Shown piece by piece: positions 10,719 through 61,691 of a DNA stretch of 64,000 nucleotides. Source of the stretch: Naegleria gruberi (lineage: Eukaryota); the NCBI GenBank assembly GCA_000004985.1, contig GG738897.1. The stretch is one strand, 5' to 3'. The first letter of the stretch is position 1. Each line of letters opens with the position of its first letter. The notes under the pieces are model-generated. The model did no database searches. It worked only from the letters and a program-made list of their open reading frames with translations, and was not told the DNA's origin. The position numbers and the translations under genes were made by a program.

Positions 10719-12563
10719 ATGCGACTTCCTTCTTCACACAACAATAATTATCAAGAAAATCTTTCACATGCCATCCAAGAAACTTTTAAAAAGTATAATG
10801 TACATTTAGAAATGTGTCTTGGCGATGGTTTCATCATGAATGGTTTTTTGGATTTTCTCAAGAATGAACTAAATGCCAGTTCTTTGGAATTTCTTGTTAA
10901 AATTGATGAATATTCGAATAGTCATAATTCGTCTACTTTCTATTCGAATGGCAGTAGTGTCAATAATGTAAATTCACCAGCAGGATTGCTTCCTTCAATT
11001 CAGACATCTACAACAACAATATCAACAATTAGTATTGGTTCTCCGTTGTCTCCATCAGTTTCGTCCACTAGTTTCACCTCACCAGGAAGAAAGGTTCAAA
11101 GAAAGGATTCTCTGAAGGATTTAACAGAACATAATTCAATTTTTTCACAACCCTTCAACAATAACAAGATAAGTAGAAAGGCCAAAGCTAAGGAAATTAT
11201 CGACAAATTTCTCAACGATCATTCAGCACATCAAGTCAACTTGTCCAGTCAAATAAGAGATGCTGTATTGAGAAATTATGAAAAGGAATGTTCTAGAGGA
11301 GGTGGTGAAAATGATATTAATCCACATTTATTTGATGAAGCCAGAACAGAAGTTAGTTTACAATTGAAATGCGACAGTTTCGTCAGATTTTTGAAGAGTC
11401 ATTCTTTTTTCAATTTGATTGTGAGTAAGGTAGAGAAGGAAGTTACCTCAAAGAATTTGGATGCCATTTACAAGTTTTTGAATATCTACTTTTCCAAGAT
11501 TGGAGAGACAAAGAAAAATCAAGTTTCTCAATTTATTACAAATAAGTCGAATAGAGCTCTTTCTCCTGCTTCACCTGCTTCTGGTTCTGGTTCAGGTTCT
11601 GGATCTCCATTGGGATTGGTTTCACCATTGGCTGATCTTTCAAGTGATGATGGTTCCATTGACTCGGTTGAATCAATTACTCATGTCAATCATGTTCAAA
11701 CAATGCTTTCCCTTCATACCCTTTCTCCAAATGGAATAGAAACAAAAATATTGGATAATGTTATGGATATTAGAGAAAAATTCACCAAATCTATTGCTGA
11801 ATTGGTAGATGATATTGTTACTGAGCAACAATTTGATTTACTTATCGAATTGGTCAATAACGAAAGTTTGTGGTTGAAAGTTCACGAAGATTCTGAATCC
11901 TCATGCTTTGTTTCAGAAAACAAATTCTATCACAACAGTAGAGGATTGAAAATTTATAAGGAAGTGGGAATTATTGAATCATCTCCTGAGGAAGTACTCT
12001 TTGCATTGACAGATATGAGAATCTTGAATATCATTGACGATACCATGTCCAATGTGAAATTTGAAAGATTTGTCAAAGGACCTACCTATGCAGTCAGCTA
12101 TTTGAGCAGTAAAATGAAAATGGCTTGGCCAATGAGTGATAGACAATTCCTGATTGGAACTTCCATTAGAGACGAAACATTTGATTCCTACAATGGATAT
12201 ACCATCTTGAGAAGAAGTCACGATTGCAAAGAGGTTCCACTCAGTAAGGGATGCATCAAGGGTATCTTTCTAGGAGGCGTTGTTATTGAGAAATTGAGTG
12301 AAAAACACACAAGATTCACAGCTTCAGGATTTGTTGACATGGGTGGCAAATTCCCACTTTCTCTCTTTAACAAGATTCTTTCACTAAGACAATCAAAAGG
12401 TGTTGAAAATGTCAAGAAGGGAATTTCAAAGAGAAGAAACATGCCACTTACAGAACAACAAGTCAACTCTGAAAATTCATTCTACTTGTTGGATACTCTC
12501 TTCTACTCGAGAGAACACAAAACTCAACCAAACAGTAGCAGCTCTCACACTCCTTCATTTTAA
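10719..12563 (+). CDS. RGS domain + START domain protein (paralogous in architecture to 5054..7105)
   Basis: ATG start. RGS-like segment: (AKEIIDKFLNDHS...FDEARTEVSLQLKCDSFVRFLKS). START-like segment: (KEVGIIESSPEEVLFALTDMRILNIIDD...WPMSDRQFLIGTSIRDE...GGKFPLSLFNKIL). Confidence 0.75.
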   Translation: MRLPSSHNNNYQENLSHAIQETFKKYNVHLEMCLGDGFIMNGFLDFLKNELNASSLEFLVKIDEYSNSHNSSTFYSNGSSVNNVNSPAGLLPSIQTSTTTISTISIGSPLSPSVSSTSFTSPGRKVQRKDSLKDLTEHNSIFSQPFNNNKISRKAKAKEIIDKFLNDHSAHQVNLSSQIRDAVLRNYEKECSRGGGENDINPHLFDEARTEVSLQLKCDSFVRFLKSHSFFNLIVSKVEKEVTSKNLDAIYKFLNIYFSKIGETKKNQVSQFITNKSNRALSPASPASGSGSGSGSPLGLVSPLADLSSDDGSIDSVESITHVNHVQTMLSLHTLSPNGIETKILDNVMDIREKFTKSIAELVDDIVTEQQFDLLIELVNNESLWLKVHEDSESSCFVSENKFYHNSRGLKIYKEVGIIESSPEEVLFALTDMRILNIIDDTMSNVKFERFVKGPTYAVSYLSSKMKMAWPMSDRQFLIGTSIRDETFDSYNGYTILRRSHDCKEVPLSKGCIKGIFLGGVVIEKLSEKHTRFTASGFVDMGGKFPLSLFNKILSLRQSKGVENVKKGISKRRNMPLTEQQVNSENSFYLLDTLFYSREHKTQPNSSSSHTPSF

Positions 12564-30426: not shown

Positions 30427-33309
30427 ATGAATGATCCCTCTAATACTTTCCCAGCAGCGAGCCAGCCTTCCACTACTGATGACAATAATCATGGTGATGA
30501 TGAAGTTGTGGTGAATAACAGTTCATCAACTACTCTCTTTCCAACTTTCCCTCCTTCTCTATCATCAACAATCAATAACACTTCATCATTACTTATTAAC
30601 AACAATAATTCTCTATTTTCATTCCAGCCTCTGCAATCAAACCCACCAATACCATCATCATCATTCTTTAACACTTCCAGCAACAATAATTCTTCTTCTT
30701 CCTTCTTTCATCACAATGATAATAATTCAAACAAAACAAATTTCTTTTCCTCCTCAACTTTTGAAATTAAAAACAATAACAACACGCAACTACGAGCCGC
30801 AACGAAAGAAGAGCAACATCAACAACATGTAATTACATCACCATTATCACCGATAAGCCTACGGCTTACATCTGCTAGTAATAATAATAATAATAACTGT
30901 ACTGGAATTAATAATAACATGAATATTAACAATAATGAATCAACGGAGAGGAGTCTAACAATTTTCAAAGCATTGAATAATAATAATAATAATACTAATA
31001 ACAATTTTAATCACATTAATAATAATAATATTAACAATAAGGAGGCTAGATCATCATCGGAACGAATTGGAAGACAAAATGTAAATAACATCTTCTCTAG
31101 CCCTTCTCATGCTAATAGCAACAATATTCATAACAATAATACCTCTCCATTATTTTCTCTACAAAGTAATAGTAATAATAGAGAAATGGAAATAGATACC
31201 TCAGGATTACTTGATTCTGAGAGGGTTTCATTTAGTATTAGTACATCAACAACAAGTAATCCCATCAATTCACTTCCAATTCCATACCAAACAGGAGTAG
31301 CTGATTCAACTCTTCATATTGCTACTGAAAGCTCATATTCAGAAAATTCACACAATTTACTGAATAATAGTTATGATAATATAAATCCCTCCGAGGAAGT
31401 TATTAGAAAAACAAGACACCAAATTGAAACAGTTGAAAATTGGGTACGACGTGCAAGTTTTTATTATCTAGTGAAGGGATTATCAATAGGATTATTGATT
31501 TTCCTCTTTTTATCCTTATTTGTGGCAGTTCTTGTTGGCCTTGCTACATTTGCCTTGGAAGAAATGAGAACCAAGAGCATTAGAGAAACGGCCAAGTACA
31601 ATTGCTTTATGGCAGATAGTGCAATCAAGAAAAGAATCGAGGTGACTATCACTGCTCTAGATAATATTCGAGAGACAGTCATCTCTTGGGATTACAATGT
31701 AGATCCTGACAAGTTTGACGAGTTTGCTATGAAAACAAGTCAATACCAATACTTTAACATCATTCACACATTTGGAATGACAAGGAATTATACACTAACA
31801 GAGGTGTATCCAATGAATGTTTTGAAGAGTCTTGTAGGACAAGAGATTGGAATTGAACCCAATCATAGGGAACAATTACAGATTGCAATAGAAACAAATA
31901 GTACTACTATTTATGGACCATTCCTTACTATCAATAATCAATACAGCTTGATGGCTCAACAGCCAATCCTTGATTTCAATTTAAATTTCTGGGGATTTTC
32001 CTTGGTTGTTTTGGAGTTTGGAGAAATTTTTCAACAAGTTAACTTGACCTCTCTTTTGGAGAATTACTCTATTCGATTTTATGATAACAAGCAAGGAATG
32101 GTATTTTATCAAAGGCTTCTTTCAGAACATAAGAATTATGATCTGAATAACTTGGAAAATGCACAATTTATTTACGAAGCCATTAATATTACAATTATTG
32201 ATACAACATGGGAAATGCTATTAATTCCAATTGATTATCACGATTCTAGTGTGTTGACATTGGAAATTTTAATACCAATCATTATTGTTGTATTTGGTCT
32301 ATTGGCCATACTCATATCTTCCATATCCTTCTCACGTTATACATTACGAGTTAGGGCAGACAAGGAGACTCTGGAGATATTTGCTTCTACAGACGAAACA
32401 CTGAAAAAAGAAATTGTAGAATTTGTGGAAAATACCTTAAAGAAGGTTGAAAATTACGTAAAAGAAGAAAATAATTTGATAGAATGTATCAATTCCTTAG
32501 ACCCTCTTGTCACTCTATTTATTGATGAATCTGCTTTAATTAACACTGTTAACAGGCCCTTCTTGACTTTATTTGGGTACAATGATGAAAGTGAATTGGA
32601 AAATGTGGACCTACAACAAATCTTGCCACTGTTTGATATCACTGATGTTTACAAAACACATGAGAAAACACCTGCACAAGATAGAGAATACATTCTTCAT
32701 TTCCCCTATGTTGAGGGATGTAAAAAATTCGGAGCTCGGATTAAACTATCTCTAAGCCTGACTTTTAGCAATACCTCAATAACAGAGCCAGTTTTCTGCA
32801 CAATCCTACTCAAGCCATCTGAATCCTTATTGAACAATATTCCAATTGACGAGGAGATTACTGAGAATACGAGCAAGTTTATGAAGACGATAATTGAAAA
32901 TAAGAGCAACATGATGAGTTTTATAGATTTTCTAAAAAAAAAGAGAAGACAAGATGATAGAAATATCATCTTTATTCAAAATGTGAAAGCTTATAAGGTC
33001 ATGAAAAATATACAGGAACGAAATTCGTATATGGAGGAAATAATCACCGATTGTATAATCTGTAAACCAAATGAGAGACTCTATGATGTGAGCCCTGAAG
33101 CATTTGATTCATTCCACAAAAAGGTACGAGAAAGTTCAGAAGATAAATCAGGTGTATTTGATGCTTTGGTAGTCATTGTCATTCAAAATTTCTTCCTTCT
33201 CAATGTGTTTGATAGCTGGCAAAAAGAGAGAACTCGTAAAGAGGCACCTTTGAAGAATTTGTTTGATCCAATTCTCAAATCCAAGACTAAACTTTCAAAC
33301 ATTAACTAA
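30427..33309 (+). CDS. two-TM sensor-type membrane protein with a PAS-like domain and a C-terminal RGS domain; Asn-rich N-terminus
   Basis: First TM: LVKGLSIGLLIFLFLSLFVAVLVGLATFAL. Between the TMs lies a ~250-aa extracytoplasmic region. Second TM: LEILIPIIIVVFGLLAILISSISF. PAS-like segment: (LFIDESALINTVNRPFLTLFGYNDESELENVDLQQILPLFD). C-terminal RGS-like segment: (FIDFLKKKRRQDDRNIIFIQNVKAYKV...FDSFHKKV...NVFDSW). Confidence 0.6.
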   Translation: MNDPSNTFPAASQPSTTDDNNHGDDEVVVNNSSSTTLFPTFPPSLSSTINNTSSLLINNNNSLFSFQPLQSNPPIPSSSFFNTSSNNNSSSSFFHHNDNNSNKTNFFSSSTFEIKNNNNTQLRAATKEEQHQQHVITSPLSPISLRLTSASNNNNNNCTGINNNMNINNNESTERSLTIFKALNNNNNNTNNNFNHINNNNINNKEARSSSERIGRQNVNNIFSSPSHANSNNIHNNNTSPLFSLQSNSNNREMEIDTSGLLDSERVSFSISTSTTSNPINSLPIPYQTGVADSTLHIATESSYSENSHNLLNNSYDNINPSEEVIRKTRHQIETVENWVRRASFYYLVKGLSIGLLIFLFLSLFVAVLVGLATFALEEMRTKSIRETAKYNCFMADSAIKKRIEVTITALDNIRETVISWDYNVDPDKFDEFAMKTSQYQYFNIIHTFGMTRNYTLTEVYPMNVLKSLVGQEIGIEPNHREQLQIAIETNSTTIYGPFLTINNQYSLMAQQPILDFNLNFWGFSLVVLEFGEIFQQVNLTSLLENYSIRFYDNKQGMVFYQRLLSEHKNYDLNNLENAQFIYEAINITIIDTTWEMLLIPIDYHDSSVLTLEILIPIIIVVFGLLAILISSISFSRYTLRVRADKETLEIFASTDETLKKEIVEFVENTLKKVENYVKEENNLIECINSLDPLVTLFIDESALINTVNRPFLTLFGYNDESELENVDLQQILPLFDITDVYKTHEKTPAQDREYILHFPYVEGCKKFGARIKLSLSLTFSNTSITEPVFCTILLKPSESLLNNIPIDEEITENTSKFMKTIIENKSNMMSFIDFLKKKRRQDDRNIIFIQNVKAYKVMKNIQERNSYMEEIITDCIICKPNERLYDVSPEAFDSFHKKVRESSEDKSGVFDALVVIVIQNFFLLNVFDSWQKERTRKEAPLKNLFDPILKSKTKLSNIN
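30879..30896 (+). repeat. (AAT)n codon repeat (poly-Asn) inside the 30427..33309 CDS; more copies lie at ~30977-30993
   Basis: aataataataataataa. Confidence 0.8.
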
Positions 33310-39416: not shown

Positions 39417-39466
39417 CTATTTCAATATCATGGTCAATTAAGTTGTGAAATTTAACATTTGCTTAC

Positions 39467-41554
39467 CTCATAAAAAGTGGAGTTCCAGCATAGGAATGAC
39501 CTTTCATTTCTTGATGCTTTTTAGCTAAGCCAAAATCAGCCAAAACAACTTCAATATCATTTCCAGAAAGATTTCGAATAAAAATATTTGAAGGTTTGAT
39601 GTCTCTGTGAATGATTGATAATTCTGAATGGACATAGTCAAGAGCACTCAGTACTTGTTTCATTATCTTTCGAATAATATCTTCAGAACATGTTTCTTTC
39701 TTTGTAAATCTTGTCAAATCGCCATTTTCAAAATAATCCATATCCATACAAAGTAAATTATCTTTTGTAATGAAATAATCATTGATTATCAAAATATTTG
39801 GATGTCTAATATTACTAAATTGTGATGCCTCTTTCATAATCGTATTCAAATCTGTAAATGATTCAAATTTCACAAACTTGACAGCTTTGATTTTGTTTCC
39901 ACATTTGGTATCTGTCACTTTGAATACACTTCCAAATGCACCTTGTCCAATTCTGACCATATTAATATATCTTGAAAGGACATCTTCATTATCTGACACA
40001 TTGGATCCCATAGACGATGAAATAATTACAGAACTGGATGGGAAGTCTGACATTTCAACAATTGTGGCATTTGCTATTTCATTTCTCTTCACTGCCTTCT
40101 TCTTCTTCATAGATAGTAGAATGATAACCACCACAACAATTATCACTATTATTAAGCCAATTCCAACAATTGGAATCACAATTGCAACCACCAAAACAGT
40201 TGTTGATTGATCGTTGGCTAAATTATCGAGTGAAGATCTTTCACAAAATTGACCATCGAAACCAGTAATACAGTTACAAATATCCAATCCAACACAACTT
40301 CCCTTTCCATTACAACTTTTTGAATCTGAAGAACTAGTTCCATTACAAGTGATTGGTTGACATTTGTCACCATAGAAACCACTCAAGCAATCGCATGTAT
40401 TATTGAAAGAATTGAATTGTGCTCCTCCTTCACAAACAGGATATAGCTTTCTAATTAGTGAAGTTACACCATTGGTTGACACTGTTTCAAGAAAAAGAGT
40501 TTCGTCCGATTTCTCATTTACATCAATAGTATAACCAAAACCAATAAAACTTGTTTCCACTCCCTTCAGGTCTCCATTGAAATAGGTACTCTGCTCTCTT
40601 GGTTTTCCTGCAATGGTCACTAACAATCCAGTTTTTTTCACATACTTTCTAATAATATTATTACCAGAATCCAATATAATTATATCACCATTCTCTTTCA
40701 CATAAAATGACTTAATTTGAGACAATTTAGACGAAACAGCAGGTAGATTATCACCACTATATCCATCAGTCCCAGTTCCAACAATACTCTTCAAATAGAA
40801 CGAACCATTCTGAAGTCGTTCCAAAACTCGAATGGTGTTTGCTGTGCAAAAGTAATGCAGGTCATCACTAATGGAATGAGAGGAACCAATGACACCAATT
40901 CGTTTGTCATTTTCTACAATGATTCCATCTTCAGATTCGAAAGGTGAATTGAGTGGATTCCAAAAGAATACACGAATCATACCTGAACTCTTTTCAATCT
41001 TTCCAAAAAAATCTGGATAACAAATGTAAATATCGCCATTCTTGGGATTTACAGAAAGACCTTTAGTACTTTGCTTTCCCAATGGAGAATTCAAAGCTGG
41101 AATGTCAGGAATCACTGTTCCACATTCCTTTCCTGCCACTTTCTGATATTTCAATGTTTTTGGATCAATTTGAATAATTCTGCAATAATCTGCAACATAA
41201 ATCATATTATCATAGAGAGAGAATACCATTTTAACATCAACTCTTGGAAAAAGTGCAAACATAAAGGAATCTAAAAGTACTAAAGAAAAGGAAAGGAAAG
41301 GTTTGACAGCTGGCAATAGAGAGGTAATTTCACCAGTTTTCTCATCATACTTCTTCAATACATTCTTATCTATTATATAGATTAGATTTTGATTTGGATC
41401 TCTGCAAAAGGAATTCATGTCCATACCAAGTAAGTTTGAGCTAGGATTGCTGCCAACTATAGTTTTGGCAATTCCATCAACTATTGTGTAAATGTAGGAT
41501 GATACTGTCGCAATGTAAATGACTCCATTATGTGCATAAATTGAATTAATCGAC
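39467..41554 (-). CDS. receptor-like Ser/Thr kinase gene copy 2, exon 4 (NHL-like repeats, EGF-like module, TM, kinase domain)
   Basis: EGF-like module: CNGKGSCVGLDICNCITGFDGQFCE. TM segment: VLVVAIVIPIVGIGLIIVIIVVVVIIL. Kinase motifs: GQGAFGSVFKV, HRDIKPSNIFI, DFGLAKK. The ORF is open from the acceptor at 41554. A 40-nt intron (41555-41594) lies upstream. Confidence 0.7.
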
Positions 41555-46299: not shown

Positions 46300-48810
46300 C
46301 TACTTTTTAATGGTCAATGGATCATAATCTGGATTCAATGAGCTTCCACAAGTAGCCACTTTTCCAAAATAGGAAAATTCAGAACTAGCCATTCCAGGAA
46401 TCATCAAATCATCACTTTTTACAACTTGAATCGTATCAACATGGAAAGTTCTCAATATTGTTGATGGTTCTGTCAAACTAAATCTCAACTTTTTGAGTGA
46501 AAATGAACTTGTTGTAAACTCAGAAATTGGAATTCTTACTCGTGCTGTTGTATTGTCAATCTTGTAATTTAAAACGTGCTCCTTCTTTACAATTACTTGT
46601 TTACCGAAAGCAGTTACTGAAATATTGAGTGGTCCATAATTATCTGAAACTCTAACAAAGAATTCGAAATGAGAATAGGCAGCACCGCTCAAACCATTAG
46701 TTCTTTCAAGATAGACATCACCACTTCCCATAATCATCTTGATTGCATTACCACATAATCCTCCTTCTCCATTAACTTCATAGGAAGCATCTCCATTTCC
46801 AGTAACAGTCGAGAATGAATTCAAATTGTCTGTGAAGAAGGCATTTCCAAAAGTTCCGTAATTGACACATGAATCTGTGGCATTGGCTATTGGAGGAGGT
46901 AAGGCACATGTCGAAGTAGTCGAATTACTGCAATATAATTGAGCTCTCAAATGTCCAGTTGGATTTTGAGTGGTTGACAATTTGACAAACATTTGACCTT
47001 TCAATAGAGCTACTTGTTCTTGATAAGATAAATCAAGGAGGAAACGACTGACACCATAAGGGGATATTGGATTATCCAATCCTGGATGGATAATTCTCTC
47101 TTGAGTACCGACAGCTCCAATTCCAACTGAAATTTCAGTGGCGATTAAATTCAAATTGTGGAAAACTGTGAAATCTAAAAGTTTTGCTTTGAAATCCCAA
47201 AATGCAAAGACTTTTCCTGAGCCATTTGAGCCAATGAGGGATGAGTTGACTGCTTTTTGTTGGCAGACTTCTAAATTTCCAACAAATCGATCTTCCTTCA
47301 TTAAGGTATTGTAAACTAATTTGGAAGAAGTTGGATTACCAAATTTAGATGGAGCACAGTTATTGTTTGGACAAGTTGCAACAATTCTAATCAAACCAAC
47401 ACTATGATAATCAGAAAATGGGTAAACATTCTCAAAATCATCTCTTGGCACTCTATTTTGTAACTTGACATATAAATGCTCAGTTGTCTGATTGTAATAT
47501 GCCAATTCATTTGGTGAAACCATGACCTCAGCCAATGAACTTGCCCAAGTCACAGGATACGTATTCGAACTTCCACTTTCTGACCAAGTTATCTTGAAAT
47601 CTGTCTTATTTGGATACTGAATTGCCAACACAATCCAATCATAGTTGACTGCATTTTTCAAGCTGACGGACAAATCTCTCGGAGTTGGATGATCATTTGG
47701 CCATCTCAGTCCATAAAATCCTCTATTAAGCAAGTTATATTGTATTACCCATGTGTTATCATTACCTCCTGGGCTTCCATTGGATGGTCCTTGAATATTT
47801 CTCAATTGGTCAACCACGTACATTCTTGGTGTGATGATATTTGCGTTTTTCAATTCAGGTTGTGCAACTCCTTTGGATGAGGTAGTATTGTATGTTGTAA
47901 ACTCGTTATTTCCGACCCTGAGTTGAACGAACATTTCACCAGTTGCGGGACAACCATAAGCACTCCAATCACTATTCGAAACACAACCAGAAAAGGCGTT
48001 CAATGGATCTTGACCAACAATCCAACCTCCACTTGGAAAACCACTAATACTTCCATCCAAATCTGCCCAAATTCCCATTCTCTGGTTATCATATGGAGTA
48101 TTATTCAAGGCATAGAACTTGTTAGAATTAATAAAGGTCAACCCAAAGAGTTTGTTAACTGCTGATTCCAATTGTTTACGAGAACGATGAGAAACTGCAC
48201 CAGAGGCCTTATATGCATCTGGAATAAAGTTAATAAATGTGCAATTGTAAAGTAATTGAGGACCGTCGTCTTCATAAACTTCGTAACCACGAATGATCAA
48301 CTCATCACTTGCATAGAGTTGAGGACGAGTTCTACCACCAACGTCAACCTTTGATCTGAAACTTGAATCGCCTACATTAGAGGTCTCACCAATCATGATA
48401 GAGTTTCTTGTAATAGTTGGTCCCTTTGGTGCAGTAATTTGTACGTTATTGTCAAATGCCAAAAAGTTTTCCAAATAAAGAACTCCTCCCTTAACCCAAG
48501 CTCCATAATCTCTATTCTTGTAAGCAGTAAAACGGAAGAATGAAGCTGACCCATTCAATGGGTAGTATCCCTCAGTTTCTAATGTACCATCAGAAAGCAA
48601 CATTTCATCAATCCACAATCCAGTAATTGAGCTGTGAGCAACGTTATCTTCGAATGGAGCCATTGCTGTTCTTCTTGGATTGAAATCTTGACCTGCATAG
48701 ATGGTAGCACTCATTCCAACAGGGAAAACTGGGAAAGAGAGCCAGAATCCGAACTTACCACCCACAGCAACGTTTCCAATAAAGGTATTGTTTGGCTTTT
48801 TTATGGTTGA
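46300..48810 (-). CDS. large secreted parallel beta-helix (PbH1) repeat protein, exon 3 (CEMIP/TMEM2-like)
   Basis: 837 codons are open from the acceptor at 48810. The exon is joined to exon 2 by an unusually short 31-nt GTAAGT..TTTTAG intron (48811-48841), phase 0. Confidence 0.6.
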   Translation of the reverse strand, partial: STIKKPNNTFIGNVAVGGKFGFWLSFPVFPVGMSATIYAGQDFNPRRTAMAPFEDNVAHSSITGLWIDEMLLSDGTLETEGYYPLNGSASFFRFTAYKNRDYGAWVKGGVLYLENFLAFDNNVQITAPKGPTITRNSIMIGETSNVGDSSFRSKVDVGGRTRPQLYASDELIIRGYEVYEDDGPQLLYNCTFINFIPDAYKASGAVSHRSRKQLESAVNKLFGLTFINSNKFYALNNTPYDNQRMGIWADLDGSISGFPSGGWIVGQDPLNAFSGCVSNSDWSAYGCPATGEMFVQLRVGNNEFTTYNTTSSKGVAQPELKNANIITPRMYVVDQLRNIQGPSNGSPGGNDNTWVIQYNLLNRGFYGLRWPNDHPTPRDLSVSLKNAVNYDWIVLAIQYPNKTDFKITWSESGSSNTYPVTWASSLAEVMVSPNELAYYNQTTEHLYVKLQNRVPRDDFENVYPFSDYHSVGLIRIVATCPNNNCAPSKFGNPTSSKLVYNTLMKEDRFVGNLEVCQQKAVNSSLIGSNGSGKVFAFWDFKAKLLDFTVFHNLNLIATEISVGIGAVGTQERIIHPGLDNPISPYGVSRFLLDLSYQEQVALLKGQMFVKLSTTQNPTGHLRAQLYCSNSTTSTCALPPPIANATDSCVNYGTFGNAFFTDNLNSFSTVTGNGDASYEVNGEGGLCGNAIKMIMGSGDVYLERTNGLSGAAYSHFEFFVRVSDNYGPLNISVTAFGKQVIVKKEHVLNYKIDNTTARVRIPISEFTTSSFSLKKLRFSLTEPSTILRTFHVDTIQVVKSDDLMIPGMASSEFSYFGKVATCGSSLNPDYDPLTIKK

Positions 48811-48841
48811 CTAAAAAATTGTAAAGAACTTTCAAACTTAC

Positions 48842-49161
48842 ATTTGTAATCCAATAGACACTAGCATCACAATCCGATGGAATAATTTGTAATTGATCAG
48901 CATCTCCAACCGGATTCACTTTTACGCCTAAATTATTTCTAAATTCATTTCCAAATTCGGAACCATCTTCCAAATAAAAAGCATGACCTGTAATATTGAA
49001 ACAGATATTGTTTTTCACGAGAATGTTTCTAGAATCATGAATGACGATGCATCTTTGATAACTATTCCAAATGGCATTGTTTGCAATCATGAATTGAGTG
49101 GAAATTTGTTTGCTTGTGTCTTTTAACAAGTGAAGATGTAATCCGTATCTTCCCATTAAAC
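48842..49161 (-). CDS. secreted PbH1-repeat protein, exon 2
   Basis: The exon encodes ..IANNAIWNSYQRCIVIHDSRNILVKNNICFNITGHAFYLEDGSEFGNEFRNNLGVKVN.., a right-handed beta-helix repeat signature. A 62-nt intron (49162-49223) lies upstream. Confidence 0.6.
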
Positions 49162-49223
49162 CTAAATATGAATAAACATTTAGATTTAGAGTTGAAATTA
49201 ACTGGAAATTATTCGAAACTTAC

Positions 49224-50172
49224 CTTTTTGACCAACATTTCTCAACTCAACTCCAACAAACTGAAATTGCTTAACCAATCTAACAATCAAATGAGATCCA
49301 AAACTGGATGCATCACTTGAATCATCTCCCTTAAACACAATTCTTCTGGTCAACAATGCAACTTCTGAAAATGTGTAATCTTTACCAACGTGTGTGAAAT
49401 TTAGCGGACTTTCCAATGTCAATGTCAAACCATCAGCTGAAATTGCCTTAATAGTAGCTTTTTCATTTTGATCTGGAAAAGCAACACCTCTTTGCCAATT
49501 TCTGGAAGTGTCATTCATTATCTTGAAATCAACAACTTCACCATAATCAGTTGAAGTTAGCAAAATGTCATCGCCAACACTCCACATGCCAGTGACAGAT
49601 TCTTTCAATGTGATAGAGCTGGTATTCTTGAGTGCAGTAGCATTAAGACGTGTCCATGCCTTATCATTAATCAATTGTCCAACAACTTGAACAGTGGCAC
49701 CTGTCAAAAATGCAATTCCCTTATTTCCTAAATTAGCATTATCATATGGATCAGTACCAAGTGTATTTTCAGTAGATCTAGGACCATAAAATGTAATGGT
49801 AATCTTCTTATAGATAGGACATGAAGTACTTCCCATAATAAACGAAGCATTTCCTTCAACTCTAATGTGATTGACGTTAATATTCATGAATTTGTTGTCA
49901 AAGATTAAAGATCCACCACTTTGGACTGTGATTGAGCCATACTTGACTGGTGGGGAGGTTTTGATTAATACTTTCTGACCTGAAGTGATTACAATGGCAG
50001 ATTCAGCGACTGTGTAATTAGAAAGTGAACTAAAGTCGACTAAACCTGATTGACCGTAAGGACATGCTTGACCATTGGCAAAACCAAACCAACACGCGCT
50101 AATAACAAGAAGCGATGCTAATAAAGCTAGTAATTTCATTTTTTTTACAATGATAAGCTCTTCAAGTTCCAT
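49224..50172 (-). CDS. secreted PbH1-repeat protein, exon 1 (signal peptide, G8-like N-terminal domain)
   Basis: ATG at 50172. The signal peptide is MKLLALLASLLVISA. A Gly-rich beta region resembling a G8 domain follows. Confidence 0.55.
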
Positions 50173-50674
50173 TACTTGCTCTATTTATTTGTTGACTAGT
50201 GACAGATGTTAACTGGATTTTACGTACTGGAAGAGGAACAACTTTTTAGAACTGACCAGTTTGGGGGTTGAACAGAGTTTTTCTTTTGAGTGAACTCCCA
50301 TTGTCAAGCTACCCAACAGTCCAATCAATAATTTTCCATTCCAATAAGACAGTTCTCATTTCGAACTAAATGATTCGAATAAGAGGTTACATGATTTCAC
50401 ACAATTACAATCCTTTTGTAAAGATTTACAGTTTCTAACATTCAACCAATACCCATCTTCGTTTCAATTATCTCTCTAGAGTCCAAACATCCAACCTAAA
50501 CTATTCTAAAACTAATTCCCAAGTTCATTACAAAAAAATGGGACAAACACAACACACTGCCATTCCACCATCCAATTCTTCACCACCACCACCACCAGAA
50601 AATGAACATCACAACATACAACAATTAATTATCAACAACAAGATGAATGGGCCGAAAGAATTTTACTCGTCGGA

Positions 50675-51826
50675 TTGAGAAGAAGTGGAAAGACACTCTT
50701 TCTTCAAACCTTGTGTCCTGATACAGTTTTATATAAAGATTTATTAGAATCTGTGAGTGGGAAAGTATTGCAACATATTCTGAAAGCAATGATGATTCAT
50801 AATGTTGAGGAAAAATTATTAGAATTGATGAAAATTGTGAAAATGTTTGATGAGGATGGAGAGAAAATTTCCAAGAATTTGCAAACTTTTGTTGAATTGT
50901 ACGTGAGAAGTAATTCATTACCTGCTGAGAGACCTATTTCTTTTGTGGAATTATTGTTGGATTTGTGGAAGTTTCGAATATTTGCAGAGTTTTATTATGA
51001 GAATATGGATAGATTTTATTTTAATGAAAATTTGGAATTGTTTGTTGACAAGATGAGAATGCATCGAGAGGATGGAATACTTTTTGATCCACTTCGAATA
51101 ATTTCAAAGGAAACTCTTGGATTTACAGCAGCTGTCAAGAAATTGGATAACAATTCCATTACTATAATTGAAAATAGAGGAACAAGACCTGATACAAATC
51201 TGAATGCCAAAAAGGTATTAGTGTTAACTGTTTCCCTGGTAGATTGCATGATTTCTGTAAAGGATGAAAGCAATTTACTGAACTTGACAACATTCACTTC
51301 ATATCCAAACTCCAAATTCGATTCTGCACTTTCCTTCTTTGAAGATATTGCCAAAAGCAGAGCATTGAAAGATTTCCAACAAAACACTCGTGTCTGTATC
51401 CTCTTTACAAAAGCAGATTTACTAATGAAACGATTGGAAAAATTCGAAACCTTTCCACGACATGAAAAGGAAGAATGTAAAACAATCCAGAGAAATGAAA
51501 TTTCAAATTTGAGAAATTTCTTCATGGAACGAAATGTCATTAATTATGTAGTGAATGAATTTTATGAAATTTTACGGAAATCTGGAATGGAAAGTATTGA
51601 ATTTGATTATCACATTATTAATGCATTGAATGAGGAGGAAGTGAATCGTGCATTTGAACTCATTGTAAAACCACTCAATCAACGAGGAGTTTCGAAACAT
51701 TATCTTTCTCCATGCCTTTACAGACCTTTAGAATACATTCCAATACAATTGTACAATAATCTTAACAATCAATACCTCACTGATGTTGTCATTATTACAA
51801 ATCCATCAAGAAACCAATCATTCTAA
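50675..51826 (+). CDS. degenerate G-protein alpha-subunit-like (pseudo-GTPase) protein; the N-terminus appears frameshifted
   Basis: The in-frame upstream extension reads ..ERILLVGLRRSGKTLFLQ, a P-loop GxxxxGKT (compare LLLLGAGESGKST). NTRVCILFTKADLL stands in place of the NKxD motif. The DVGGQ switch II is replaced by ENRGTRPD. An MGQTQHTA... ORF from ATG 50538 is in a different frame and stops at 50678. Confidence 0.5.
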   Translation: MRRSGKTLFLQTLCPDTVLYKDLLESVSGKVLQHILKAMMIHNVEEKLLELMKIVKMFDEDGEKISKNLQTFVELYVRSNSLPAERPISFVELLLDLWKFRIFAEFYYENMDRFYFNENLELFVDKMRMHREDGILFDPLRIISKETLGFTAAVKKLDNNSITIIENRGTRPDTNLNAKKVLVLTVSLVDCMISVKDESNLLNLTTFTSYPNSKFDSALSFFEDIAKSRALKDFQQNTRVCILFTKADLLMKRLEKFETFPRHEKEECKTIQRNEISNLRNFFMERNVINYVVNEFYEILRKSGMESIEFDYHIINALNEEEVNRAFELIVKPLNQRGVSKHYLSPCLYRPLEYIPIQLYNNLNNQYLTDVVIITNPSRNQSF

Positions 51827-52314
51827 TTGACAAGCTAATGACAAATACTTCCAAAAAGTTTAGTCTCAACTTTCCAATAATCGACACTAACCAAAACTAA
51901 ACTCAAATCTTCAGAGTCTATTAAAGGAAATTGCAATAAATGAAACTCAACACTTTCCCCAAAAGACATCCAAAGTAAATTACCATCAAATTTAATATGT
52001 GAAATTGTCACAGCAGGAAAGAACCATTGGTGAGTTAATTTGACATTGAGCAGATCAATACTGTTAAATACTCTTCCTTTGTAAAGAGTTGGAGGATGTG
52101 GACAAGTTGCTAGTCGCCATTGAAAAGACACAACCATAAAGTCAACCAACATGCCAAGTGTCAATAATTAAAATAGAAAGGTGCCAGTTACGAAAGCCAT
52201 TTTTACATATTTGAGGTGAAGTGCGAGGTCTGCAAGCCGTTGCGTCATTATCAAACAATTTAACATTCAAAAAAAAAAGATTAATTTCACACGAAACGAA
52301 ACTATTCGAAACCA

Positions 52315-53244
52315 ATGGTCGCTTACTTTGCTTCATTAGCTTCGTTAGATAACAATTTCGAAGATTTACGACCACGTAGACCTACCAAGGTTTCTCCCAG
52401 ATCTTCCACAAGCTCTTCTCCAAGAAATAATGCTGGGGAACATTCGCCAACGAGCCAAGATTCGTCCGACATTCTTCAACTTTCTCCAACAACAAGTATG
52501 ACGAAATTACCAGTAGAAAGGACTCGTTCACATTCGAATAGTGGTAACAGTACCTATTCTTCATCTTCAGTTTCGTCGAGTGGGTCTCAGAGTGTTAGAC
52601 GAAACTCACCATTAGAAAGTCCACAACCTCTGGAAAGGTCGATTCGTGAAATGGCAAGAAATTATGTGATCAATATTGAAAAGTTCCTGTCTACCAATAA
52701 TCATGATGAAAATGAGAGCTTTTCAGAGTTTCTCAAGTCTGAATGTAATTTGGCCCCTTTAGAATTTTATCAGAAAGTAACCGAATTCACGACTAAACCG
52801 GAAAAGAAGGAATTGGCACGTTATTTGATAAAGAATTATATCAAGGAAAGAAGTAATAGTGAAATTAATATTGCAAATAATGTGAGAGAAGTCATTTTGA
52901 AGGAATATAAGGAATGCAAGCACAACAATAGTCAAGTTTCGTCTAATATTTTCGAAAAGGCCTGTAATGAAGTTAAACTGTCGCTCAAGAATGACAGTTT
53001 CACAAGATTTGTTGCCAGTGAACAATTCAGCAAGTTAATTTTGAAGAAATTCAATCAAGCAAACAAATCACTAGATTCGAATAATTCTACAGAAATATTG
53101 GAATCCATTTTCGAATCAATTGGTTCTCTCTCCCCACTTTCCTCTCCTAAATTCTCTGCTCATTCTCATCCTCAAAATATTGTAAACAAATCTTTGGATA
53201 CTATTGCAAACTCTCAAATTATTGTAACTCCTCCAAATGAGTAA
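52315..53244 (+). CDS. RGS-domain protein with a Ser-rich N-terminus
   Basis: ATG start. The RGS-like segment is (ERSIREMARNYVINIEKFL...LEFYQKVTEF...ARYLIKNYI...FEKACNEVKLSLKNDSFTRFVASEQF). Confidence 0.7.
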   Translation: MVAYFASLASLDNNFEDLRPRRPTKVSPRSSTSSSPRNNAGEHSPTSQDSSDILQLSPTTSMTKLPVERTRSHSNSGNSTYSSSSVSSSGSQSVRRNSPLESPQPLERSIREMARNYVINIEKFLSTNNHDENESFSEFLKSECNLAPLEFYQKVTEFTTKPEKKELARYLIKNYIKERSNSEINIANNVREVILKEYKECKHNNSQVSSNIFEKACNEVKLSLKNDSFTRFVASEQFSKLILKKFNQANKSLDSNNSTEILESIFESIGSLSPLSSPKFSAHSHPQNIVNKSLDTIANSQIIVTPPNE

Positions 53245-53836
53245 TTTACTTTCCAATAAGATTATTAGAATTGATAACAAGATGGAATTATAGAACTATA
53301 GCAATGCGAGTAATTGAAAAAGTGACAGAATTGTTCACTATTTCTAAAATTGTAAACTAATTTTTCAATTAAAATATTTTTGAAATTAATTTTTTTATGG
53401 TTCAATTAATGGTTAATATCTCACAGGTTGAAACTTGAAACAAAGTCTAGAGATATACACTCCAAACCAATTAACAAAGTTGATGAGATTACAAAGATTG
53501 ATCAAATTTGTTTAAGAAATGTGCTAAACGTGGATTAAAGTTCATCTATATCATTACTGTTCACCTTAATAAGACTTGCATGAACATCTCAAATAACAAA
53601 GATTCTTTCTTCCTTACCAAGGCAATTTAAGATCCAATTCTAAGGTTCAGATTCAATCTCTACGAACACTTTTAAAGTCCATTTTAAGGTTGCCACGTTC
53701 CGAAAAACAATTAAAAAAAATCTCATCAACATAAAAAGCCTTAACGTTTTTAAAAAAAACACATCACGAGCCATCACAACAAACCGCCACCTTAAACCTT
53801 AGCCGCTAGAACGATAACAAACAATTCTCAAGAAAA

Positions 53837-55015
53837 ATGTCCTCCATCACACAACGGGAAGCACCACCTTACACTAGAATTCAATATGTTTCGCTTTCAA
53901 CTCTTGGGGTCATCACGGAAAAGATGAAGACTAAGATATTAACAGTGGCTACTAAGGAAAATTCCAAGCACAATATTACTGGAGTTTTGATTTGTGTGAG
54001 GGATATGTTCTTTCAGATTATTGAAGGAAAGACTGCTGATATTGAACAATTATTTGCAAATATTGTCAATGATTCGAGACATAATAATGTTGCATGTGTC
54101 GACAAGTCGTATTTTGAAAGTGAGGATGATAGAATGTTTCCTTCGTGGGATATGAAATCAATTGAGGTTGATTGTTTGTTTCCTACCAAGAAGGATGTAT
54201 TGATTTGTGGGGAAAATTGTAATCCACTCGATCCAACTCATAAGAGAGTTATTGAGACTGCATTCTCTGCTTTTACAACAATGATGGGAAGTATGTTCAG
54301 AGCTCAACAAGTGTTCAAGAATTATGCCCAACCAAGTGTAACCAAATTTGTTAGGGATGGATTGAATCCTCTCTGTATTCAATCTGTTGTTACGGAAAAG
54401 ATTGTAGTTTTTATTGACCTTGTAAATTATACCACCTTGACAGAAATCATTTCTCAATCGAGAAGCGTTGCAGAAATTGTAAGAATTCTCAACTTGTTCT
54501 TTGCCTGCGTTATGGAAATTGTCGAAGAGCACGGTGGAGACATTACCAAGTTGATTGGTGACTGTGTAATGTGTCATTTTGATGGGAAAGATTCACAAAA
54601 GGCCATTGATTGTTCGTTGAAAATATTGGAACGATTAGACCATCTCAGATATGAAACAACAGATCCATTCGAAAAGCTCATCTACTGTACAATAGGAATC
54701 TCGAAGGGTGAGGTCATTTTGGGAAATGTTGGCACAGTTGGAAGAAAGCTTGACTATACAGTCATTGGTGATTCAGTAAACACATCAGCAAGATTACAAT
54801 CCTTTGCCTCCACTACTCAATACTATCTCATTTTCGATGAGAATGTAAAGAATGATTTGATTAATGAAGATTATGTAATATCGTGTGGTTCGATTGAATT
54901 GAAAGGAAAGAGAAATACAGTCAATGCCTACACAATAGAGAATGTATATAATAGAAAACCTCAGAAAGAAGATTTGAATGGTCTTTTCAATGTGTGTTCT
55001 TTATCAATATTGTAA
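53837..55015 (+). CDS. BLUF domain + class III adenylyl/guanylyl cyclase (photoactivated adenylyl cyclase-type protein)
   Basis: N-terminal BLUF signature: YTRIQYVSLS...NITGVLICVRDMFFQIIEGK...NDSRHNNVACVD...FPSWDM. C-terminal cyclase homology domain: VVFIDLVNYTTL...HGGDITKLIGDCVMCHF...IGISKGEVILGNVGTVGRKLDYTVIGDSVNTSARLQS. Confidence 0.85.
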   Translation: MSSITQREAPPYTRIQYVSLSTLGVITEKMKTKILTVATKENSKHNITGVLICVRDMFFQIIEGKTADIEQLFANIVNDSRHNNVACVDKSYFESEDDRMFPSWDMKSIEVDCLFPTKKDVLICGENCNPLDPTHKRVIETAFSAFTTMMGSMFRAQQVFKNYAQPSVTKFVRDGLNPLCIQSVVTEKIVVFIDLVNYTTLTEIISQSRSVAEIVRILNLFFACVMEIVEEHGGDITKLIGDCVMCHFDGKDSQKAIDCSLKILERLDHLRYETTDPFEKLIYCTIGISKGEVILGNVGTVGRKLDYTVIGDSVNTSARLQSFASTTQYYLIFDENVKNDLINEDYVISCGSIELKGKRNTVNAYTIENVYNRKPQKEDLNGLFNVCSLSIL

Positions 55016-55043: not shown

Positions 55044-55982
55044 ATGTCTCGTGTCGTAGTGGAACTTGTTGATTTAAATGTCGTGGAAAATTCATCATCA
55101 TCAGATCATATTATTTATTTAATTAATATATTGAAGAGATCATTTACAAAAAAAAAACATCAATTTTCGTTGAATTTTAACATGATTGGTCAATTTGATC
55201 AACTTTCTCCAAAAGATCCTGTCTTTGATATTGCCATTTCCAAAAAATATGACACGATACTCATTCCACAGAGGGTTGGTATATCAATTTATAATAGACC
55301 AAGCAGTCGGGAAACTTTCCATCTCGAGCAATTATTCAAAGTAGAGAAACCCAATTCTGGGCTTCGTTGTATGAAATTGGTTGAAGAGGAAGGAGAGGAA
55401 TTTATCTATGCAACAGATTACTCAAGCACTGTTGTTAAATTTAGTGTTTCGGATATTATGATACGAAAAGTATTTTCAATTATTTGGCAATCTGAATCAT
55501 TTTCTAATTTGTGGGGATTGGATGTTTTGAATGGAAAAGTTTATGCAGTTGACAATATGAAGTCAGTTAAAATTTTGGATTGCAAAAGTGGTGCAACTAT
55601 TTCAGAAAATGCTCCAAATGTAGCAGAAGGATACGGTATTCATTTCTTGTCAGAGAAACAAGCAGTAGTAAGCAACTCAAAGAAAGTGGAAATATTCGAA
55701 AGGGACAATTTTGGTAATTGGAATTCCATCAAACAAACTCAATTTCCAATGGAAGCTGCTTATTCAATTTTCTGTGAAGAATCATCCGGATTAATCTATG
55801 TTTGTGATGATTCTAAATTACATGGATTGAATATTCATGTGGTAAGACAGAATGATTTGACATTGGTGAAATCATTTCCAATTCCTTCCTTGCATTTTGG
55901 TGTTATGGTGGACGATAAAAGTGGATTGCTGTATGTGTGCCATTATGAAAGTTCGAAAATGCAGGTTAATGTTTATGAATAA
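55044..55982 (+). CDS. hypothetical protein, possibly a beta-propeller (NHL/TolB-like repeats)
   Basis: 312 aa with an ATG start. Repeats of the ..LIYVCDDSKLHGLNIHVV / GLLYVCHYESSKMQVNVYE type are present. Confidence 0.4.
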   Translation: MSRVVVELVDLNVVENSSSSDHIIYLINILKRSFTKKKHQFSLNFNMIGQFDQLSPKDPVFDIAISKKYDTILIPQRVGISIYNRPSSRETFHLEQLFKVEKPNSGLRCMKLVEEEGEEFIYATDYSSTVVKFSVSDIMIRKVFSIIWQSESFSNLWGLDVLNGKVYAVDNMKSVKILDCKSGATISENAPNVAEGYGIHFLSEKQAVVSNSKKVEIFERDNFGNWNSIKQTQFPMEAAYSIFCEESSGLIYVCDDSKLHGLNIHVVRQNDLTLVKSFPIPSLHFGVMVDDKSGLLYVCHYESSKMQVNVYE

Positions 55983-56754: not shown

Positions 56755-57480
56755 ATGAGTACAAAGAGAAGTACAGTATTACCAGATAATTTCCTTAAAT
56801 TTTGTAGGGAACAAGTAGCATCAGCAGATAGAAAGGATTCCTCAGTTTGGACTTTGGAAGCAGAGAAGGATGGAGTCTCTGTCTATTCGAGACCAGTGGA
56901 TAATCAAGAAGGAGGTTTGGAATTGGCTTTTCGTATTAGTGGTTTGCTGAAGGCTTCTGTTGAGGAGGCTTTTGAGGCTACACGAAATGTACATTATAAA
57001 GTTGTTCAGAAGAATGCCATTGAGGAAGGAAGAGTAGTGGAGGATCATTATTCAACACCTGACGAGGATGGAGAATTGTATGATATTGTCTATCAGAGAA
57101 CTCCTTCTCCGAATACATATATTATTGCCAAGAGAGAGTTTTTCTCTGCTCGTTACTTTACTGAGATTGAGGGCAAAAAGTTGATTTTTGAACGATCGAT
57201 TAATATTAATGATTTGGCTCCACAGACTTTAAAGTCTATGAAGAAGATTCCTGGATTTAATGAACCAGGTGCTATTGAAGGAACTATCAAATTTAGTATT
57301 GTTGAATTTGAGGCAATTAGTGAGACTAGCTCAAAATTTGAGGTTATTAGCAAGATGAATTTGAATGGTTGGATTCCAATGAAACTTATTAATAATTTAA
57401 TGAAGATTGCTCCTCAAAAGGCAAGAGATGACATTGAATCGTGTATTGACACTTACAGAAAGTCCAAGCAACAAAAATAA
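56755..57480 (+). CDS. START (StAR-related lipid-transfer) domain protein
   Basis: 241 aa with an ATG start. Fold signature: ..WTLEAEKDGVSVYSRPV...YDIVYQRTPSPNTYIIAKREFFSARYF...LNGWIPMKLINNLM. Confidence 0.7.
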   Translation: MSTKRSTVLPDNFLKFCREQVASADRKDSSVWTLEAEKDGVSVYSRPVDNQEGGLELAFRISGLLKASVEEAFEATRNVHYKVVQKNAIEEGRVVEDHYSTPDEDGELYDIVYQRTPSPNTYIIAKREFFSARYFTEIEGKKLIFERSININDLAPQTLKSMKKIPGFNEPGAIEGTIKFSIVEFEAISETSSKFEVISKMNLNGWIPMKLINNLMKIAPQKARDDIESCIDTYRKSKQQK

Positions 57481-60406: not shown

Positions 60407-61363
60407 TTACAAATTATTCAAGTCAACCAAAGTGGAATTTTCCATCAATTCTTTCAATTCATCTTCCCATCCCAATTCTCTCACTAACAATTCCACACAT
60501 CCATCAATGGTCTGATCAGCTCCTCCCAAATATAAATCCAAATGATTATTCTTCACATCACATTCTCTAATAGCTGATTGAATATTGTAAAATCCTCCAC
60601 ATCGATCTCTATTGATTAAAACTCTCATCGTTCCATGAGGTGCATATTCTGGAAGGAGGGCCACTGGATAAACTTGTAAACTAGTTCCAATGACAATGAA
60701 TAGTTTACAATTTTTGTGTTTTTTCAAATCTTGAAAAACACATTCTCCAAATTTGTCTGGTAAATCTTCTCCGTACAGAACTACATCAGTTTTTACAATA
60801 TTTCCACAAACATTGCATTTGGGAATTTGAACTTCTTCCTCACTTTCACTTGTCATTTGATCTCTCAAATATTGTAAAGTAAATTGTTTTTTACAATGCA
60901 TGCAATGAGAGGTGTGCAATTTTCCATGACAATGCACCAACAATTCATCTGAAACTCCACTTTTTCTCTCCAATCCATCAATATTTTGTGTGTACAATCT
61001 CATTAACTTGTTCTTATCTTGCAATAGCTTGATAAAGAAATGAGTTTTCGATGGTTTGTATTCGGTGGCAATGAAATTCTTCATTCTTTCAAAAAATGGA
61101 ATTGGATTTTCTTTGAAATAACCAATTTCGAATATTGATGTTGGATCTTTGACTTCGTACTTATCGAGTGAGCCATTTACAAAGAGTCCTTTACCTGGAG
61201 TTCTAAAATCTGGAATGCCACATGAAGTTGACAATCCGGCACCTGTCAATACAATTATGGAGGCATCTGAAATGTTGTTAATTTGCTGAGCGAGTAATTT
61301 GACAGCATCAAGTCGTTCCTCATCAGAAATGGTTGGTTCCACACGTTCTTTCTTTTTCGTCAT
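60407..61363 (-). CDS. sirtuin (SIR2-family NAD-dependent protein deacylase)
   Basis: Sirtuin signatures: GAGLSTSCGIPDFR, TQNIDGLE, Zn ribbon CxxC...CxxC (HCMHCKKQ...CNVCGN), and VVLYGEDLP. The ORF-track start is GTG at 61477; the first ATG is at 61363 (MTKKKERV...). Confidence 0.85.
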   Translation of the reverse strand: MTKKKERVEPTISDEERLDAVKLLAQQINNISDASIIVLTGAGLSTSCGIPDFRTPGKGLFVNGSLDKYEVKDPTSIFEIGYFKENPIPFFERMKNFIATEYKPSKTHFFIKLLQDKNKLMRLYTQNIDGLERKSGVSDELLVHCHGKLHTSHCMHCKKQFTLQYLRDQMTSESEEEVQIPKCNVCGNIVKTDVVLYGEDLPDKFGECVFQDLKKHKNCKLFIVIGTSLQVYPVALLPEYAPHGTMRVLINRDRCGGFYNIQSAIRECDVKNNHLDLYLGGADQTIDGCVELLVRELGWEDELKELMENSTLVDLNNL

Positions 61364-61691
61364 TTTTTTTTGCAGTGAAATTTGGAAGATAATTTTGAAC
61401 AGTTGACAGAAATTTGAAGTTGAACTTGACACTTTACAATACAACAGCAAATTGTTTTCAATTTCCAACTTCCACACCTATCTTTCAAAATATTTCCGCT
61501 TATCAAGTAGAAACTTTTCTATTGGTTGATGCACCACCAATCTTTCAAATTCGTCGCCTTTCATACTCAAATTTACAACACTGTTCAGTTCAAGTGGTTT
61601 AGAATATTATAAATACCTGCTGCTGATGCTTCTAATTAAAAACAACAAAAAATATAACCAAACAACTCATTAGAAACTAAACTAAACGAAA

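Follow-up and report, generated by a model that had tools for sequence, protein, structure and literature searches.

The question raised by this locus is whether three adjacent genes form a signalling module or simply lie next to one another, and whether the first of them still encodes a working protein. The locus occupies positions 50538–55015 of a 64,000-nucleotide stretch of the Naegleria gruberi NEG-M genome (contig GG738897.1, assembly GCA_000004985.1; hereafter the window), which is gene-dense, has few introns and ranges from 30 to 38% GC. It contains a gene for a protein resembling the alpha subunits of G proteins (G-alpha), a gene for a regulator of G-protein signalling (RGS) and a gene encoding a BLUF domain together with a cyclase. 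We propose, with somewhat more confidence than doubt, that these are three independent genes whose adjacency is coincidental, the G-alpha-like one encoding a protein of a GTPase-dead type and being either a copy that was disabled recently or a null allele. All three would belong to very large, lineage-expanded signalling families; lineage-specific radiations of both G-alpha and RGS in Naegleria and heteroloboseans have been described by De Mendoza et al. 2014. When the literature was searched with the locus tags and accessions of these genes, no citing paper was found.

The G-alpha-like gene is made up of the following features, where Gαi1 is the human protein (GNAI1) and the clade is the set of Naegleria relatives described below:

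50606–51826, plus strand: main frame, open over 406 sense codons, with TGA at 50603–50605 just before it and TAA at 51824–51826 closing it
50672–50695, plus strand: P-loop GLRRSGKT, in which GxxxxGK[ST] is kept (GAGESGKS in Gαi1) and the inner residues (RR) are atypical
51104–51121, plus strand: switch I remnant SKETLG, located by alignment and by hhalign to Gαi1
51170–51199, plus strand: switch II remnant ENRGTRPDTN, followed by a five-residue deletion, located by alignment and hhalign
51407–51418, plus strand: G4 motif TKAD (clade consensus TKPD; NKxD in canonical G-alpha, NKKD in Gαi1)
51680–51823, plus strand: clade-specific C-terminal extension HYLSPCL ... YLTDVVIIT, which replaces the canonical receptor-coupling tail

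The product of this frame is a real G-alpha homologue with degenerate catalytic machinery. It matches the Pfam G-alpha family (PF00503) with a score of 54.0 bits (E = 1.9e-14), above the cutoff of 48.8, over residues 16–353 of 406 and model positions 21–329 of 333; a first-pass annotation of the window had named an insignificant profile match as grounds for giving up the G-alpha assignment, and the similarity is significant. A phmmer search of the protein against PDB sequences found no G-alpha; the relationship is seen only by the Pfam profile, by profile–profile comparison and by fold comparison. A profile of the clade aligned to human Gαi1 with an hhalign probability of 99.5%; identity of the window protein to Gαi1 is only ~16%, and the residue mapping given below depends on the alignment. 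The AlphaFold2 (AF2) model of the window protein, for which the clade alignment was used as input (pLDDT 75, pTM 0.75), consists of a Ras-like domain into which an all-helical domain is inserted; the helices of the latter (residues 43–156) lie between beta1/alpha1 and switch I. When this model was compared with PDB using Foldseek, the best 50 matches were all G-alpha (Gs, Gi, Gt, Gq and plant GPA1), at E ~1e-13 to 1e-11, TM 0.52–0.73 and ~360 aligned columns, a length that means the match takes in the helical domain. The corresponding public entry, NAEGRDRAFT_52181 (D2VTR3, XP_002672442), is a 345-aa 'predicted protein' with 100% identity to the window frame from residue 62 on; it lies on a 326,913-bp scaffold. 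The products of four other ORFs of the window (NAEGRDRAFT_52182, NAEGRDRAFT_72396, NAEGRDRAFT_52170 and NAEGRDRAFT_81188) likewise have exact counterparts among N. gruberi proteins.

The first-pass annotation described this gene as keeping the P-loop and TKAD and having lost the DVGGQ of switch II, which the Pfam, hhalign and AF2/Foldseek comparisons and the alignments bear out. In switch I, R178 of Gαi1 (the Arg finger) is replaced by Ser and T182 by Leu, and T181 (the Mg-binding Thr) is kept. In switch II, Gαi1 reads FDVGGQRSERKKWIHC where the window protein reads IENRGTRPDTN followed by a gap of five residues: DVGGQ has become ENRGT (D200E, G202R, G203 kept, Q204T), the deleted residues correspond to KWIHC of Gαi1, taking away the conserved Trp and the helix start, and the RxERxKW helix that follows DVGGQ in canonical G-alpha is not retained. 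TKxD is functional for GTP binding in Rac1, and guanine binding may persist in the window protein despite TKAD. The catalytic Arg and Gln are absent and switch II is partly deleted, so that the earlier prediction of a GTPase-dead protein holds at the level of motifs; the protein is predicted to be of a type that does not hydrolyse GTP, with nucleotide binding still possible.

Canonical G-alpha subunits, such as human Gαi1 and Gα1–8 of N. fowleri (Bosch et al. 2022, PMC9283941), have in common with the window protein the fold, the P-loop, the switch I Thr, xKxD and, in its ancestral frame, an MG start. The window protein differs from them in having no Arg finger, no DVGGQ and no start of the switch II helix, in carrying TKAD for NKxD, in a start that is out of frame, and in ending not in a receptor tail but in a short alpha5 helix (residues 343–354 of the AF2 model) followed by ~50 clade-specific residues, including a further helix at 374–387.

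The clade is small and evolves fast. When 1.84 billion representative proteins were scanned in full with HMMER (E ≤ 1e-3), only 10 proteins were returned, all the named ones from N. gruberi or N. lovaniensis and three from environmental or SRA assemblies; a profile search of a 5.8-billion-protein database with the clade alignment found at least two. All ten clade proteins match Pfam G-alpha, 9/10 of them (counting the window protein) above threshold, and identities to the window protein are 21–30%. They are characterised by an MG start (MGxKxS; for example MGQRKTKH, MGQRKSKAPPP, MGSKQS and MGTKPS), a P-loop GxxxSGK[ST]T, a switch II xxGGxRxERRKW, TKPD, YHI[VI]N at G5, and a shortened alpha5 leading into an extension [FY]ISPCL...LTDIxI. 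At the position aligned with R178 no clade member has Arg (three have Lys), and the catalytic Gln is kept only in the member P0002. Judged from these alignments, loss of catalytic motifs appears to be a trait of the whole Naegleria clade rather than a peculiarity of the window gene, and clade proteins could still bind guanine nucleotide without being able to hydrolyse it. Two features set the window copy apart within the clade: the deletion in switch II, and an insertion of 11 residues after the next strand (where model confidence is low). This copy has lost most of switch II, and would be expected to undergo no GTP-dependent movement of switch II and to make no canonical contact with Gβγ or RGS.

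For most of its history the window gene has been constrained. Outside switch II it matches 66% of the clade-conserved columns, compared with 67–71% for the intact divergent members P0009, P0005 and P0004, and its 406 codons have stayed stop-free in DNA of ~33–34% GC. The 5' end is described by three further features:

50538–50678, plus strand: ancestral 5' coding piece with the MG start, an ATG in A-rich context, MGQTQHTAIPPSNSSPPPPPENEHH..., forming a 46-codon open reading frame (ORF) with its stop TGA at 50676–50678
50606–50675, plus strand: overlap of the two frames and site of a 1-nt (mod 3) break, placed early in this interval by codon scores
50789–50791, plus strand: ATG of the public 345-aa model, downstream of the P-loop

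The ORF that starts at 50538 (MGQTQHT...) is in a different frame from that of 50606–51826, which after TGA 50603–50605 reads ...QQQDEWAERILLVGLRRSGKTLFLQ and reaches its first ATG only at 50789; the MG acylation signal is thus not in frame with the G domain. A codon log-odds score trained on 22 long ORFs of the window gives +13.6 for codons 1–22 of the MG ORF, to be compared with 8.0 ± 4.5 for 23-codon windows in the true frame and −17.9 ± 13.1 in off frames. Within the overlap (50606–50674) the score is +6.0 in the main frame and −2.1 in the ATG frame. By these scores both pieces resemble coding sequence, as would be expected of one former ORF split by an indel early in the overlap; as assembled, the ancestral MG start is cut off from the frame of the P-loop by an indel of 1 nt (mod 3). 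In three relatives, P0004, P0009 and P0002, the frame that begins with MG is unbroken.

Other ways of joining the two frames were considered and rejected. No GT dinucleotide occurs within 50538–50668, and exhaustive enumeration of GT, GC or AT donors with AG or AC acceptors gave no canonical GT-AG solution. The GC-AG and AT-AC introns that could be drawn have donors unlike the GTAAGT of neighbouring introns (those of the adjacent G8/CEMIP gene are of the form GTAAGT...TAG), and several of them would remove the P-loop. Programmed −1 frameshifting was discarded as the sequence, read directly, contains, in the ATG frame between 50606 and 50675, no heptamer of the form X XXY YYZ, and an extra A in the AAAA run at 50599–50602 is ruled out since TGA 50603–50605 would then come into frame. 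An out-of-frame MG start, the lack of a reconciling intron and a frameshift within 50606–50675 had all been proposed in the first-pass annotation, and the ORFs, the intron enumeration and the codon scores agree with it on each.

The public model NAEGRDRAFT_52181 sidesteps the frame break by starting at 50789, and for that reason lacks the P-loop. It is improbable that this model is correct and that the gene encodes a 345-aa, nucleotide-free G-alpha remnant without beta1, P-loop and alpha1. The downstream start does match the annotation as it stands, and a second member of the clade (P0008, C9374_002998 of N. lovaniensis) has likewise been annotated after a stop codon. However, the 61 open codons upstream of 50789 encode a clade-typical RILLVGLRRSGKT P-loop strand, the chance of 61 stop-free codons is ~0.9% by our own estimate (~7.4% stops per random codon with the base composition found here), and losing beta1, P-loop and alpha1 would remove the core of the modelled Ras-like domain.

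C9374_002998 is itself annotated from an internal ATG, as a protein of 301 aa. The sequence upstream reads, in the same frame, MGQRKSKAPPPAEDEIEEPFRKIVLLGSRRDGKSTLVKSF...SLQHL*HHFLK..., a stretch with MG start and P-loop that a single in-frame TGA interrupts:

L003 7780–8000 (PYSW02000017.1): upstream MGQRKSKAPPP...KIVLLGSRRDGKST segment of C9374_002998, the annotated public model of which lacks the P-loop

Two other clade models, P0003 (263 aa) and P0010 (108 aa), are also incomplete, being truncated or fragmentary.

We think it somewhat more likely than not that the frame lesion in the window gene is real and recent, which would make the gene a young pseudogene or a null allele. This is favoured by the other 5' damage within the clade, by the rarity of consensus indels in Sanger assemblies and by the lack of a long homopolymer at the break. 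A less likely explanation, which we regard as possible, is that the break is a Sanger consensus error or a matter of haplotype choice, and that the real gene has ~430 aa, starts MGQTQHT and encodes a functional G-alpha-fold pseudo-GTPase independent of hydrolysis. Both frames are coding-like up to the junction, the 406 codons of the main frame contain no further stop or frameshift, and clade-specific positions are conserved as well as in intact members, all of which would fit a live gene; in addition P0004, which is probably the positional orthologue in N. lovaniensis, is intact (starting MGQRKTKH) though catalytically degenerate (switch II DVGVD), which suggests that selection maintains such proteins. 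Against an error, the interval 50606–50655 contains no long homopolymer (the longest runs are AAA and TTTT, at 50655–50664), and indel errors are rare in the consensus of 8x Sanger assemblies. A 5' lesion of independent origin is present in another clade member (the TGA of C9374_002998), the upstream start was unsupported for the builders of the public model, and position 6 of the MG start is His, where other clade members with myristoylation-like starts have Ser or Thr.

Two considerations temper our preference for a real lesion. The ORF carries no second lesion in 1.2 kb, a state expected just as much of an assembly error, of a heterozygous null allele or of a second haplotype that is intact, and the weight given to a real lesion over an error rests on few members of the clade and on typical error rates of Sanger sequencing. 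Exact-product look-ups with both versions of the G-alpha-like protein, the RGS protein and the cyclase found no independent assembly across the break on record. Two scans of metagenomes for exact patterns were made with 26-mers and 20-mers from either side of the break; one gave no match, and a second gave three chance matches of 20–22 nt with no extended similarity.

The neighbours which gave the locus its appearance of a module, together with the gene on its other side, are:

52315–53244, plus strand: RGS-only gene NAEGRDRAFT_52182 (D2VTR4), PF00615 at 60.5 bits against a cutoff of 23.9
53837–55015, plus strand: NgPAC2, NAEGRDRAFT_72396 (D2VTR5), BLUF (79.9 bits) and class III cyclase (Guanylate_cyc, 58.5 bits)
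46300–50172, minus strand: G8/CEMIP gene, divergent from the G-alpha-like gene and the synteny anchor to N. lovaniensis

The first-pass annotation suggested a non-canonical regulatory pair of the RGS protein and the dead G-alpha-like protein. Such a pair would be a dedicated one, by analogy with AtRGS1 of plants, which binds XLG2 independently of nucleotide, and NgPAC2 might belong to the same module. The pairing is unsupported and we give it very little credence. Its attraction is that the genes are adjacent on the same strand with a 488-bp spacer, that plant XLGs provide a precedent in binding RGS and Gβγ independently of nucleotide (PMC8584482), and that the RGS domain, as in R4-type domains, keeps the equivalents of N128, D163, S164 and R167 (RGS4 numbering). 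In the best alignment, however, the equivalents of the RGS4 contacts E87 and N88 are not conserved but are Ala and Pro (SEFSEEN has become SECNLAP), and the contacts on the G-alpha side are gone, with T182 replaced by Leu, Q204 by Thr, switch II lost through K210, and the stretch K209–C214 (Gαi1 numbering) substituted and deleted.

Nor is the adjacency repeated at four other clade loci, including the syntenic one in N. lovaniensis, none of which has an adjoining RGS gene. At that locus (L002), no RGS or BLUF-cyclase gene lies within 8 kb of P0004, and none lies next to P0008, P0009 or P0002 at theirs. The window and L002 share two neighbouring genes, the G8/CEMIP gene (39–58% identity) and the clade G-alpha-like gene, and nothing else matches. 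P0004 is the best tblastn match to the window gene among the four loci compared (25% identity), and this together with the shared G8/CEMIP neighbour makes it the probable positional orthologue. The G8/CEMIP gene itself encodes 1278 aa in N. lovaniensis; in the window it is split over two ORFs, with at least two short GTAAGT...TAG introns around 48765–49200.

Naegleria genes are not known to be arranged in functional operons, which also counts against a module. With ~15,700 genes in N. gruberi, chance would produce ~0.6 adjacencies of a G-alpha and an RGS gene in each genome (44 × 2 × 108/15,700), a figure that can itself be held against our reading in that the RGS count behind it is borrowed from N. 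fowleri and the gene number is approximate. The counts entered are 44 G-alpha genes in N. gruberi (PMC8584482) and 108 RGS-domain proteins in N. fowleri, which also has 80 cyclases (PMC9283941). With RGS contacts lost, adjacency absent at four clade loci and a chance expectation of this size, the claim of a regulatory pair is without support; the adjacency of the G-alpha-like gene, the RGS gene and NgPAC2 is most simply a coincidence, and the apparent signalling neighbourhood should not be taken as a functional module.

The third gene was predicted from sequence to be of the photoactivated-cyclase type, and indeed it is a known, characterised gene about which there is nothing new to report. 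Published primers for NgPAC2 encode MSSITQ and ...SIL, which are both ends of the ORF at 53837–55015 (MSSITQREAPP... and ...VCSLSIL), and the match at both termini identifies it as NgPAC2; the other starts derived from primers are different (MSSIQE for NgPAC1, MPTMNN for NgPAC3). It shares BLUF and a class III cyclase with bPAC, OaPAC and NgPAC1–4, and its product matches the OaPAC and bPAC structures at E 2e-61. N. gruberi has four PAC genes, of which NgPAC1–3 have been expressed experimentally and found to be light-activated; NgPAC2 is reported as a weak blue-light-activated adenylyl cyclase, giving only a moderate light-induced rise in cAMP in HEK293T cells (PMC5608697). A further ORF on the same strand, 55044–55982 (312 aa), begins only 28 bp beyond the end of NgPAC2, a distance unusually small for separate eukaryotic genes; it has no Pfam match and its exact sequence is absent from the protein collection.

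The RGS gene next to the G-alpha-like gene is one of several for which RGS domains had been claimed in the window. Its annotation as an RGS-only protein is confirmed by the Pfam score given above: it has an S/P-rich N-terminal part, an RGS domain at ~52699–53037, the best PDB relatives of which are R4-type (RGS5, RGS7 and RGS2 being among the PDB relatives), and, within the expanded RGS repertoire of Naegleria, no START, 7TM or other partner domain. Its activity as a GTPase-activating protein is only putative. The others are:

5054–7105, minus strand: RGS + START-like gene, RGS 60.3 bits; Pfam detects no START
10719–12563, plus strand: RGS + START gene NAEGRDRAFT_52170 (D2VTQ0), RGS 61.3 bits, START 28.9 bits
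30427–33309, plus strand: two-transmembrane (two-TM) protein NAEGRDRAFT_81188, with a weak RGS-like C-terminus (18.2 bits, below the cutoff of 23.9)

The first-pass annotation counted four RGS genes in the window, two of them RGS + START fusions and one a two-TM sensor with PAS and RGS domains; three of the four RGS calls stand, and that at 30427–33309 scores below threshold. The fusion at 10719–12563 is upheld by Pfam in both its parts. That at 5054–7105, on the minus strand, is upheld for RGS, and for START by similarity to its paralogue, its C-terminal 190 aa having 38% identity (E 3e-37) to the START part of 10719–12563. In the protein at 30427–33309 the two TM segments are present; PAS was not detected by Pfam, the domain between the TM segments, taken to be extracellular, being instead CHASE-like (24.1 bits against a cutoff of 25), and the C-terminal 200 aa have no PDB relative at E ≤ 1. 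CHASE domains are typical of sensor kinases and cyclases of bacteria, plants and Dictyostelium. The N-terminus of NAEGRDRAFT_81188 comprises ~340 residues of extreme N/S-rich low complexity, which precede the CHASE-like domain between its two TM helices; the RGS-like tail, below threshold, comes after that domain.

Four RGS calls in 64 kb is above random expectation. The RGS-only protein is 31% identical (E 1.5e-20) to 5054–7105 and 30% identical to 10719–12563, and the two RGS + START genes are 36–38% identical to each other. The three solid RGS genes are thus paralogues of one subfamily (30–38% identity), and old local duplication explains most of the clustering. A fragment search with the RGS domain for relatives returned no match.

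Several other genes were observed in passing. At a distance of 3.5 kb downstream from the RGS-only gene there is a START-only ORF of 241 aa (56755–57480, plus strand; PF01852 at 25.1 bits); it has no close BLASTP similarity to the START parts of the RGS + START genes, and its exact sequence is not an annotated protein. A SIR2-family deacetylase gene (60407–61477, minus strand; 182.9 bits) and a gene with NHL/EGF-like repeats and a protein kinase domain (39463–41424, minus strand) are unrelated to the finding. On the Logan contig from SRR15442450 that carries the clade member P0009, the region just upstream of it (L001 4793–6793) encodes a 667-aa protein with 14 DUF4116 repeats (703 bits).

The G-alpha-like gene of the window is best described as a damaged member of an already known type, the degenerate G-alphas, and is nearest in function to the XLG proteins of plants. 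According to a passage of PMC8584482 (citing Anantharaman et al. 2011), departures from the catalytic motifs occur in some G-alphas of Dictyostelium, Naegleria and plants, and some are without the N-terminal residues for membrane tethering; the same source groups some Naegleria G-alphas with XLGs as motif-deviating. XLG1–3 resemble the clade in having a G-alpha fold, degenerate catalytic motifs and a proposed action without a GTPase cycle, and the window protein, if functional, would act in a similar way, as a nucleotide-locked or nucleotide-independent scaffold. The two differ in that XLGs have a long N-terminal extension with a nuclear localization signal and a Cys-rich region, whereas the extension of the Naegleria clade is C-terminal. 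In addition XLGs still bind Gβγ and AtRGS1, whereas the switch II that would bind Gβγ and RGS is deleted in the window copy. The Naegleria clade arose independently of XLGs.

A broader possibility is that the clade is a maintained family of G-alpha-fold pseudo-GTPases older than the split between N. gruberi and N. lovaniensis, signalling without a GTPase cycle or coupling to G-protein-coupled receptors, in which the window gene is live, its break artefactual and its switch II dispensed with, and the RGS neighbour is perhaps a nucleotide-independent partner. Taken as a whole we consider this quite unlikely, and continue to favour a recently disabled copy lying by coincidence beside two unrelated genes.

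This appears to be the first record of TKPD in place of NKxD, of the C-terminal extension, of the clade-wide absence of the catalytic Arg and of 5' lesions in two species. The frame break in NAEGRDRAFT_52181 and the in-frame stop in C9374_002998 indicate that catalogues of Naegleria G-alphas, including the 44 reported, mix live, catalytically dead and probably dying genes. The pseudo-GTPases of the clade, if functional, would provide an independent protist parallel to the plant XLG proteins, an idea that draws on the intact members and not on the broken copy.

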